From Candidatus Thorarchaeota archaeon (GTDB lineage: Archaea > Asgardarchaeota > Thorarchaeia > Thorarchaeales > Thorarchaeaceae), in the NCBI GenBank assembly GCA_011364905.1, contig RDNZ01000049.1:1-19201 (forward strand): a stretch of DNA of 19,201 nucleotides, written 5' to 3'. The position numbers were made by a program, and so were the translations under genes. Below the pieces are notes generated by a model that worked only from the letters and a program-made list of their open reading frames with translations, ran no database searches and was not told where the DNA came from. Shown here in pieces: positions 10,176-11,971 of the stretch (positions are counted from its first letter, which is position 1; the number at the start of each line of letters is the position of its first letter).

Positions 10176-10946
10176 TCAGTCCTCCCAGTCGAAGTCGTCG
10201 ACATTGTCCCATGCGTAAGGAAATCCCCTCATGGAGTGTTTCATCGACTTTAGGGATTTAAGCCCTTTCAGACCCTTCATGGCACTGGAAACAGACTGCG
10301 TGACAATTGGACCAATGTCTAGAAAGTTGTCCAGTCCAACCACACCGCTTTTTCCAACAATGATCTGTTTGCCATCCTTGTTTGAAACAACTACTCCAGA
10401 CTTGCTCACTGAAACTAGGTTGTCATCACCAAGCACGAAGACTGACTTGTCATAGGTGAAGACTAATCCTTTCTCCTCACTCAGAACCAGAAGCAGTTTC
10501 TTGTTCTTCGAATCGTGTCCGAAGAGTATCTTCGAGTCTTTTTTGGTATCAATCGTTGACTTCTTGGTGTCACCATTGAGGTAATCATGGATGGCTGTTT
10601 CAATCGCCGTCGTAAATGAATCAAAGTCTTGAAACTTCTGCTTCTGAGCATCTGATATTTCCGCGTTTTTAGAAATGTTCTCCAATGAGGTGGATCCTAT
10701 GAACAGCTGCACTCCAGAGAGTTCGCCAGTTATTGACTCACCCATGGCACCCATGTCAGTTTCAGCAATTGCGTCAACTGCGAAACGTGATGGGCCTGTA
10801 AAAGCAACACCTACACGAACTCCATCCTGGAGCAGGTATGACCACACACAACCAGGACTCATTTTCACATAGGCCTTCTCATGCGAGATTATATCAATCT
10901 CCTGTGTTGTTACCATTACATATCTATCGGGTGTTAAGTTCTTCAT
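10176..10946 (-). CDS. Hypothetical beta-rich protein, 256 aa, with acidic Trp C-terminus (WDNVDDFDWED)
   Basis: Long ORF 14 nt downstream of the wHTH gene with a GGAGG RBS; no family recognised. Confidence 0.8.
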   Translation of the reverse strand: MKNLTPDRYVMVTTQEIDIISHEKAYVKMSPGCVWSYLLQDGVRVGVAFTGPSRFAVDAIAETDMGAMGESITGELSGVQLFIGSTSLENISKNAEISDAQKQKFQDFDSFTTAIETAIHDYLNGDTKKSTIDTKKDSKILFGHDSKNKKLLLVLSEEKGLVFTYDKSVFVLGDDNLVSVSKSGVVVSNKDGKQIIVGKSGVVGLDNFLDIGPIVTQSVSSAMKGLKGLKSLKSMKHSMRGFPYAWDNVDDFDWED

Positions 10947-10960
10947 CTTTCATTTCCTCC

Positions 10961-11971
10961 CTAATCGTCCCAATCTAAATCGTCAAGGTCGTCATCTTCA
11001 TCATCGTCCTCTTCTAGAGATTCTTCTAGTTCCTCTCTTGCCTCCTCGAGGTCATCGCGCTGGTCTTCTAGCTCATCCCTGGCATCTTCAAGTGCATCCC
11101 GATGGTCCTCGAGCTGGTCTCTTGCCTCTTCAACCTCATCAGCGAGTCTTTCCAAATGCTCGGCAGCTGCCTCAGCGGCATCTTCATCCTCAATGATGTC
11201 TGCATCATCATCATCTTCATCGAAGTCAATATCCACCTCGCCAGCGCTATTGTTGCCTATCCGTTCTCGCTGTTTCTCAACCCTGTGAGTGAGCCACTGG
11301 GCAAGCCGATAAGCCAGCCGTCCCTCAACTGTAACATAGTAAGTCCCACGAACCTCTCCCTTGACTACGTATCCTGCATCAATCAATGGATTGAGATGAT
11401 GAGTCAAAGAGCTTCCAGTCTTGCCAGTGAAGTTCTCGATGTCGTTGAAGCTCTTGCCGCCAGTCTTGAGATAGTCTAGTATTCTGAGTCGTTCCTCACT
11501 TCCAAGTGGAGAAACAATCTGAGCCACTCGTTCAGGCGCAATTGATTCAATCTTCTTACGCTGCTCCTCTCTTCCTTTAGTTCTTCGACGACCCTTAGTG
11601 ACTCGTATACCCGGTACTTTCAGACCCTCCACACTCTTCAGACTCATCTCAATCTGATGACCGAGTCCGTCCATCATGGTCTCAAGGGAGTCTGTGAGAT
11701 CCTCAAGATCAATATCGACCCCAGCGACCCGTGGAACTCGAGGCGGTCTCGGGGCCCTTGGTGCTCGCGGCGGTCGGGGTGGCCTAGGTGGCCTGGGTGG
11801 TCGTTCGCGACGATGCTTTGCAGCTTCTTCTCTGAGTCGCTCAGCTTCAATCCGTTGGTGGCGGACGTCCTCCTGCTCTCGGCGCACTTCTTCGACCTCT
11901 CGTTGGAGATCTTCTTTCAGCCTGCGAACCTCTTCAAGTTCTTCCTTTATCCTTTCCAAATCGTCACTCAA
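10961..11971 (-). CDS. ArsR-like winged-HTH protein with N-terminal coiled coil, Pro-Arg repeats and acidic heptad-repeat tail
   Basis: Core LGSEERLRILDYL...SFNDI...GSSLTHHLNPLIDAGYV...RGTYYVTVEGR; TTG start. Confidence 0.85.
   Translation of the reverse strand: MSDDLERIKEELEEVRRLKEDLQREVEEVRREQEDVRHQRIEAERLREEAAKHRRERPPRPPRPPRPPRAPRAPRPPRVPRVAGVDIDLEDLTDSLETMMDGLGHQIEMSLKSVEGLKVPGIRVTKGRRRTKGREEQRKKIESIAPERVAQIVSPLGSEERLRILDYLKTGGKSFNDIENFTGKTGSSLTHHLNPLIDAGYVVKGEVRGTYYVTVEGRLAYRLAQWLTHRVEKQRERIGNNSAGEVDIDFDEDDDDADIIEDEDAAEAAAEHLERLADEVEEARDQLEDHRDALEDARDELEDQRDDLEEAREELEESLEEDDDEDDDLDDLDWDD
11030..11155 (-). repeat. Six 7-aa acidic heptad repeats within the CDS (consensus LEDARDE)
   Basis: LERLADE VEEARDQ LEDHRDA LEDARDE LEDQRDD LEEAREE. 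Confidence 0.85.
11729..11800 (-). repeat. (xPR)8 tripeptide repeat within the CDS
   Basis: PPR PPR PPR PPR APR APR PPR VPR, encoded with varied synonymous codons. Confidence 0.9.

Follow-up and report, generated by a model that had tools for sequence, protein, structure and literature searches.

A conserved, lineage-specific C-terminal short linear motif common to three proteins of Thorarchaeota

Two linked genes with a common ending

The window analysed here, 19,201 nucleotides (nt) long, is contig C48 (RDNZ01000049.1) of the genome of a Candidatus Thorarchaeota archaeon (GCA_011364905.1; 3.08 Mb in 95 contigs, 45% GC). It carries two adjacent genes, referred to as A and B, whose protein products end in the same type of acidic, tryptophan-containing peptide, referred to as the DW tail (Table 1). 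A first-pass annotation, made from the sequence of the window, had described the two open reading frames (ORFs) and their endings, and both are present. It had also taken the two proteins to be otherwise unrelated, which was borne out by BLASTP, where similarity between A and B is confined to the last 10 residues. The tail is found on a third protein, C, encoded elsewhere in the genome, and is a lineage-specific, conserved C-terminal short linear motif common to the three proteins.

Protein A matches the Pfam family HTH_5 at residues 159-202 (E 1.1e-6; 28.8 bits against a 22-bit cut-off), with HTH_20 and MarR_2 also matched in the winged helix, and an NCBIfam ArsR/SmtB subfamily model was matched with an E of 7.7e-7 and 28.8 bits, which is under its curated cut-off of 55 bits. 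A is an ArsR-type winged-helix coiled-coil protein. The order of its parts is an N-terminal coiled coil, a Pro/Arg-rich linker, a conserved helix, a basic arm, the winged helix, an acidic helix and the DW tail. In the AlphaFold2 (AF2) model, helices at residues 2-56 and 263-331 have predicted local distance difference test (pLDDT) values of about 90-95; the winged helix-turn-helix at 146-215 shows a helix-turn-helix and a beta wing; a further conserved helix lies at 89-112; and residues 57-88, 113-127 and 240-262 are disordered. The Pro/Arg-rich linker is variable in form in the A orthologues. In the alignment, the acidic helix differs in length by species, and it is absent in A homologues of other genera and families. 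The tail comes after this long helix and is undocked in the single-chain model, in which the helix would hold the tail at a distance from the DNA-binding domain.

Protein B gave no match to Pfam and matched NCBIfam models only below threshold (E 0.03). It consists of a beta-rich acidic core (residues 1-200) followed by a disordered C-terminal extension, which contains a basic GLKxLK stretch and the DW tail; pLDDT values in the AF2 model are 83-95 over residues 1-120 and about 30 over residues 204-256. Searches for the fold of B found nothing at E < 0.001 with Foldseek against the PDB, a best Z of 6.9 with VIA, which is under the noise level of that tool (about 8), and no usable match in a protein atlas search. 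The best VIA neighbours of the model over residues 1-205 (Z 6.9, all under the noise level) are single-layer beta sheets such as the TCP10/G-box domain of CPAP and OspA. The ligand of the CPAP domain is a proline-rich segment of STIL; A bears a Pro/Arg-rich linker, and a contact between A and B is possible, as a lead only. The B family comprises 116 clusters at 50% identity in a profile search.

The two genes lie head to tail with 14 nt between them, and in more distant lineages they overlap by 1-4 nt, an overlap compatible with co-translation. Given this spacing, the ribosome-binding-like site within the gap and the overlaps found elsewhere, A and B were taken as one operon. A sequence search of the PDB with the last 23 residues of A and B gave no meaningful matches.

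Table 1 Coordinates of the genes and features discussed in the text. Positions are those of the window unless a contig is given.
Feature	Position	Strand	Details and basis
Gene A	10961-11971	minus	ORF, 336 residues, ends EEDDDEDDDLDDLDWDD-stop
TATA-box-like element, TTTATATG	12006-12013	minus	about 35-40 nt upstream of the A start codon; consensus likeness in sequence only
Pro/Arg-rich linker of A, residues 57-82, PRPPRPPRPPRAPRAPRPPRVPRV	11726-11803	minus	translation; predicted disordered
ArsR-type winged helix-turn-helix of A, residues 146-215	11327-11536	minus	Pfam, NCBIfam, AF2 secondary structure
Acidic helix of A, residues 263-331	10979-11185	minus	AF2, pLDDT 94-96
Tail of A, D-L-D-D-L-D-W-D-D and stop codon	10961-10990	minus	sequence
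GGAGG ribosome-binding-like site	10956-10960	minus	in the 14-nt gap between the A stop and the B ATG; 9 nt before the B ATG
Gene B	10176-10946	minus	ORF, 256 residues, ends WDNVDDFDWED-stop
Disordered linker of B, residues 204-247, with basic repeat KGLKGLKSLKSMKHSMRG	10206-10337	minus	pLDDT 30-40
Tail of B, N-V-D-D-F-D-W-E-D and stop codon	10176-10205	minus	sequence
Protein C, 10-transmembrane-segment membrane protein	G000:C32:20166-21254 (L021:5001-6089)		362 residues; contig C32, unlinked to A-B
Histone-like protein	12231-12431	plus	66 residues, Lys-rich; divergent from A; DUF1931 histone fold, PDB 9qt0, E 8.1e-5
Two ABC exporter half-transporter genes	6248-9995	plus	convergent to A-B

The tail motif and its third carrier

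The full motif comprises nine residues, [DN]-hydrophobic-[DE]-x-hydrophobic-D-W-x-D-COOH, and is kept in 19 of 19 full-length A orthologues, 120 of 120 listed B homologues and 109 of 120 C homologues. Counted from the C-terminus, position -9 is D or N in the profiles of A, B and C; -8 is hydrophobic (L in A, V in B, F in C); -7 is D or E; -6 is free; -5 is L, F or M; -4 is D; -3 is W; -2 is free (D, K, E, T, N, Q, H or P); and -1 is D. Among the A orthologues D at -9, D at -7, D at -4 and W at -3 are each found in 100% of sequences and D at -1 in 89%, with L, I or M at both -8 and -5 and D, K or E at -2. The B homologues have V at -8 (99%), D at -7 (97%), F at -5 (100%), D at -4 (100%), W at -3 (100%), E, K or D at -2 and D at -1 (97%). 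The profiles are concordant in all three families: the fixed elements are the Trp, the Asp residues at -4 and -1 and a hydrophobic side chain at both -5 and -8, and the variable positions are -2 and -6. The spacing of these two, four residues, would be compatible with a short helix that exposes one face. No correlation of position -2 between A and B of the same genome was visible.

The motif is rare. The first-pass annotation had proposed a scan of the proteome for C-terminal Trp-acidic endings, and such a scan was made on a six-frame ORF set of the whole 3.08-Mb genome, with frames read from stop to stop and at least 60 codons long (15,053 frames). The pattern [LIMFV]DW.[DE] ends 3 of the 15,053 frames, which are A, B and C. 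Among the controls, seven permuted patterns end no frame and a variant with F or Y in place of W ends two. From the internal frequency of the motif (3.2e-5 per site), about 0.09 C-terminal cases were expected in the approximately 2,700 long ORFs, against the three observed. The complete ORF set contains the eight-residue core [LIVMF][DE].[LIVMF]DW.[DE] three times, in A, B and C, and each time it forms the extreme C-terminus. A scan of five genomes of the genus with a DNA pattern, in which each match with a true stop codon was checked for an open frame, found no further long ORF or family with the tail.

The tail is also conserved. Twenty A-B loci were fetched from the genus of the window (g1), and the gene pair is syntenic in all 20. 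The tail, whose conservation in orthologues had been proposed as a test, is kept in all of the 19 full-length A and the 20 B orthologues of the genus. All 120 B homologues listed end in DW and two further residues, and 109 of the 120 C homologues end in W-x-D, down to 46% identity. Sequence entropy is 0 at the core of the motif and 1-2 bits in the flanks. At the DNA level the tails of A, B and C are identical at 19-21 of 30 positions; this is no more than the shared codons alone require, and there is therefore no sign of recent copying. In being short, with fixed and free positions, at a site that is exposed or predicted to be disordered, better conserved than its flanks and apparently gained more than once independently, the tail has the properties of a short linear motif. 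Full-text literature searches for an acidic-Trp C-terminal motif in Asgard archaea or Thorarchaeota returned nothing relevant.

Protein C, the third carrier, matched no Pfam family above threshold. By eye, it is built of five tandem hairpins of two transmembrane segments each, with Arg/Lys-rich loops on one side. The hairpins repeat a conserved W..F..W.FFFA...YQN pattern, and the N-terminus is acidic and then Arg-rich. Both ends of the protein are predicted to be cytoplasmic by the positive-inside rule, and the tail lies about 15 residues past the tenth transmembrane segment. The named homologues of C carry the labels Thorarchaeota or Promethearchaeota, with two exceptions (one with a Sifarchaeia label and one partial record under the label Bathyarchaeota). 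A gene for a small Ras-family GTPase is located about 1.7 kb from that of C.

Three further ORFs of the source genome (G000), on contigs C9, C47 and C95 (201, 298 and 105 residues), end in other acidic-Trp forms in which the Trp is the last residue (...EDYEEEEW, ...DSVDLDLDW and ...DFDDEDDDW, respectively); these are putative genes.

Gain of the tail within one family

An A-like gene paired with a B-like gene is found in other families of the phylum (G025, G035 and NCBI assemblies), where such tails are absent and the C-terminal extensions are missing in both proteins; the A-B gene pair is thus older than the tail. In the B family, the tail is present in the nearest 20 or so members. In some of these DWDD is followed by a further 2-3 acidic residues, and in one by 10 more residues. 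The C-terminal extension is absent from distant homologues of about 200 residues. Many of these distant members (P0141-P0235) end in His/Cys-rich sequences or in CC, CxC or HCC (for example, RHGCC, FHCCH and RICC), and the B homologue of genus g16 (L076) has a long His/Gly/Cys tail. Such endings are a recurrent feature, possibly for metal binding or lipidation.

Among the lineages of the window's own family, the canonical tail is present on A, B and C in g1. In g18 B and C have the canonical tail and A has none, and in g17 the canonical tail is found on B, with a tail-less A and a distant, tail-less homologue of C. The B protein is also canonical in three metagenome lineages, of which L070 has an A that ends in EDLEDDW and L069 and L071 have an A with no tail. 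In g19 and g21, B has a loose acidic-Trp ending and A has either no tail or a loose ending of the same kind; no C was found in g19, and the C homologues of g21 are tail-less. Neither A nor B bears a tail in g15, g16 and g20, and no homologue of C was found in g16.

A tree of the A and B cores, with the tails removed, was constructed by a quick method with Shimodaira-Hasegawa-like approximate likelihood ratio test (SH-aLRT) support. It recovered g1 with a support of 100 and a clade of g1, g17, g18, L069 and L070 with an SH-aLRT of 80; L071 was not resolved. From its distribution, the tail was gained by B first and by A last, with C at a less clean position, and C and A gained copies of their own independently. 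Turnover and spread of this kind are typical behaviour of short linear motifs.

In one metagenome lineage (L071:375-1349, L072:2918-3892), the A homologue lacks the DW tail and has a long N-terminal acidic-aromatic extension, MDDFDEFDDEYDDDDDF..., which may be an acidic-aromatic module placed at the opposite end of the protein.

Candidate partners of the tail and the genomic neighbourhood

The tails combine fixed and free positions in a manner typical of binding peptides and are found on disordered or cytoplasmic ends of three unrelated proteins, for which a short linear docking motif is the best reading. We favour, with confidence somewhat above even, the reading that the DW tail is a selected docking peptide for one common folded receptor and is displayed to it by A, B and C. 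The first-pass annotation had likewise suggested a common docking partner in a short linear motif system not described before, a suggestion that gains support from the conservation and rarity of the motif, from its predicted place at the end of a disordered stretch and from the third unrelated carrier. From a motif whose rarity, conservation, placement and stepwise spread are observed, we infer that the tail is bound, that the receptor is a single one and that binding has an effect. The putative receptor would have a pocket that takes the Trp and two hydrophobic side chains and whose basic lining meets the two Asp residues, at -4 and at the C-terminus; the three proteins would compete for this receptor or be assembled on it. 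The DNA-binding A-B module could in this way be coupled to the membrane protein C, for example as a regulator held at the membrane. B would contribute its basic, possibly membrane-seeking stretch, and the regulator would perhaps be controlled from the membrane.

Several points weigh against a common receptor. Four candidates for it failed correlation tests. The extra residues that follow DWDD in some B homologues outside the genus imply that a free carboxylate directly behind the motif is not always needed. The spread is not cleanly nested: g17 groups with g18, and yet C is tailed in g18 (and in g1) and tail-less in g17. The tail-bearing lineages are all close kin, and the counts of conserved sequences therefore overstate the independent support. 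Finally, a degron, or a mutual interaction of A, B and C, would give an identical sequence pattern.

The rejected candidates are as follows. The folded core of B has an acidic net charge, with a mean of -11 in the tail-bearing clade and -4 in the others. The basic arm of A, considered as a co-evolved receptor, occurs in genera with and without the tail. An insert of about 45 residues in the nucleotide-binding domain (NBD) of the adjoining ABC exporter is found in 10 of 11 lineages regardless of the tail. The family of the histone-like neighbour, considered by its phyletic pattern, is present in 47 of 81 genomes of the phylum and is too widespread to discriminate.

By sequence, the W-acidic motif read by the kinesin light chain (KLC) is the nearest known motif. 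The concave groove of the KLC TPR domain binds an acidic peptide with a Leu at -2 and a key Trp, as in SKIP (TNLEWDDSAI) (PMC6214655). The two motifs are alike in their core of Leu/Met, acidic residue, Trp and acidic residue within an acidic disordered stretch, the Thorarchaeota endings LDWD, FDWE and LDWD fitting the LEWD of SKIP, and in having unrelated carriers that include membrane proteins; on the KLC side, one common groove with an electrostatic component serves them all. They differ in that the Thorarchaeota tail is longer, has a second hydrophobic residue at -8, is located at the extreme C-terminus and has a fixed last Asp and a free residue after the Trp. The likeness is one of sequence and logic and not of descent. 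To our knowledge, kinesin-1 is not known from archaea; the genome was not searched for kinesin or KLC.

The EEVD-COOH tails of Hsp70 and Hsp90, which are bound by TPR domains of the two-carboxylate-clamp type, offer a second comparison. Like the DW tail, they are acidic peptides that form the very C-terminus; the last Asp is invariant, a hydrophobic residue stands four positions upstream, and the peptides are borne by unrelated clients of one receptor class. Unlike it, they have no Trp, some B homologues outside the genus extend past the motif, and no TPR of the clamp type was identified in the genome. A TPR-type groove is a first guess for the receptor, drawn by analogy and rather doubtful. 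It is based on the reading of LEWDD-type peptides by the KLC TPR, on the reading of EEVD-COOH by clamp TPRs and on the TPR-bearing ORFs of the genome, which number about 25 and of which none has a telling tail or position.

If there were no outside receptor, the acidic Trp tail of B, and later those of C and A, could bind a basic part of A, B or C itself, an arrangement that we consider unlikely. The site would be in A (the basic arm or the Pro/Arg-rich linker beside the winged helix), in B (the GLKxLK stretch) or at the N-terminus of C, which is Arg-rich. Binding would mask the contacts with DNA or with the membrane, or tether A to the membrane through C. All three proteins contain strongly basic segments, tail and basic stretch of B arise as one extension, and the A-B pair is old and tightly coupled (overlapping, or 14 nt apart behind GGAGG), so that a complex of the two is probable. 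However, the basic arm of A is equal in g15, g16 and g20, where B has no tail, and weak in the tailed g17, and the B core, given the acidic net charge stated above, would be a poor receptor. The fixed Trp, the fixed Asp residues at -4 and -1 and the freedom of -2 and -6 point more to a shaped pocket than to a run of disordered basic sequence, and the AF2 single-chain models leave the tails undocked.

The tail could also be a C-terminal degron, a possibility named in the first-pass annotation, read by the adaptor of a protease or unfoldase, by which the levels of A, B and C would be controlled together. Its extreme C-terminal position on flexible ends, its almost invariant last residue and its limitation to very few proteins are what would be expected of such a signal, and C-terminal degrons of comparable size are known in bacteria and eukaryotes. 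We nevertheless regard a degron as distinctly unlikely: we know of no archaeal degron of this kind, the residues beyond the motif in some homologues oppose strict recognition of the end, and a common degron would be unusual for a membrane protein with ten transmembrane segments and a soluble regulator.

Acidic stretches with an aromatic anchor are a usual mode of histone binding, and the tail might accordingly anchor the basic histone-like protein encoded next to A, in the style of a histone chaperone, with A, B and C loading, titrating or tethering a chromatin protein. The neighbour matches a DUF1931 histone-fold structure and has a Lys-rich N-terminus, and its gene is found upstream of A at 17 of the 19 loci of the genus, as well as in tail-bearing lineages that are more distant. 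Such adjacency says little, given that the entire neighbourhood is syntenic, the ABC exporter genes included. The family of this protein is mostly found in tail-less genomes, and the neighbour is also present in g15, where A and B are both tail-less; a role of the tail in histone binding is improbable.

Eukaryotic activators of the Arp2/3 complex supply the comparison made in the first-pass annotation, which had proposed a counterpart of the WASP/WAVE A motif that engages actin-family proteins and so ties a transcription factor to Asgard actin. In the case of N-WASP, pockets of ArpC1 and Arp3 accommodate the Trp of the EWE motif (PMC7274804). For Asgard archaea in general, only profilins and gelsolins are reported as actin regulators, with a distant ARPC4 homologue perhaps present in some Heimdallarchaeota (PMC7444086). 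The DWDD and DWED endings resemble those of the WASP family in that otherwise unrelated proteins have acidic C-terminal ends in which a Trp is conserved about three residues before the last; A has a Pro-rich stretch followed by the helix at 89-112 and, in the species of the window, LKSV, an order like the Pro-rich, WH2 and acidic parts of WASP; and the genome encodes a eukaryote-like actin (E 1.2e-132). These likenesses do not extend further. In each of the 26 genomes searched within the genus, just one actin-family gene (PF00022) is complete, the other matches being fragments at contig ends, and there are therefore no Arp2 or Arp3 paralogues; ARPC4 (PF05856) was found in none of the 26, in a search that had no positive control. 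The annotation had seen no WH2 motif, in agreement with Pfam, which shows none in A at E values up to 1; a central helix is also missing, B and C have nothing comparable, and LKSV is not conserved, with IKGF or IKDF in other species. Unlike in A motifs, which have no fixed hydrophobic positions, the residue beside the Trp need not be acidic (-2 accepts Lys, Thr and Pro) and a hydrophobic residue is required at both -5 and -8. A link to WASP and actin is highly improbable, with a small probability left for the single actin or its regulators as the target. Since the motif arose within one Thorarchaeota family, it cannot be the ancestor of the eukaryotic one, and an archaeal origin of WASP-Arp2/3 signalling is not supported by the DW tail.

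Compositional convergence of acidic tails with no shared function, the caution raised in the first-pass annotation, is the least credible explanation, for although acidic tails are common and the last 90 residues of A are very acidic, nine positions match in three families, the Trp is fixed in a proteome with 1.3% Trp, placement is strictly C-terminal, there are no other carriers and the tail is kept down to 46% identity in C.

If a common receptor for the three tails is accepted, a hub-and-peptide network of the eukaryotic type could have evolved within the Asgard lineage, with one receptor whose clients, B, then C, then A, grew the peptide de novo, and gene regulation would thereby be tied to the membrane; we think this a remote prospect. 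In its boldest version, the receptor would be the Asgard actin system or a TPR sensor, and the motif would foreshadow eukaryotic W-acidic signalling in function, as an analogue and not as an ancestor.

Eukaryotic cell regulation is marked by hub domains that read short linear motifs, and few such motifs have been documented in archaea. In the present case, a single motif is seen to spread among unrelated proteins in a single Asgard family, with an order of gain that can be dated, and its carriers hint at a link between a DNA-binding regulator and the membrane. The nine-residue peptide, with a W-to-A control, is a cheap handle on a putative receptor or interaction hub of Thorarchaeota, and it would give a first clue to the function of the A-B module, found widely among Asgard archaea.

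The neighbouring genes are conserved with A and B. Every genus of the family that was examined retains the arrangement of the two exporter genes with A-B, whether the tail is present or not, and this retention suggests that the ABC exporter and the A-B module are functionally linked. The NBD insert is located in the first exporter subunit and is missing in one g19 genome. The histone-like protein matched the archaeal histone model of Pfam only faintly; its gene lies upstream of A in most loci of the family, and a second copy is present in the genome on contig C95, about 37 kb from the acidic-Trp-tailed ORF of that contig.

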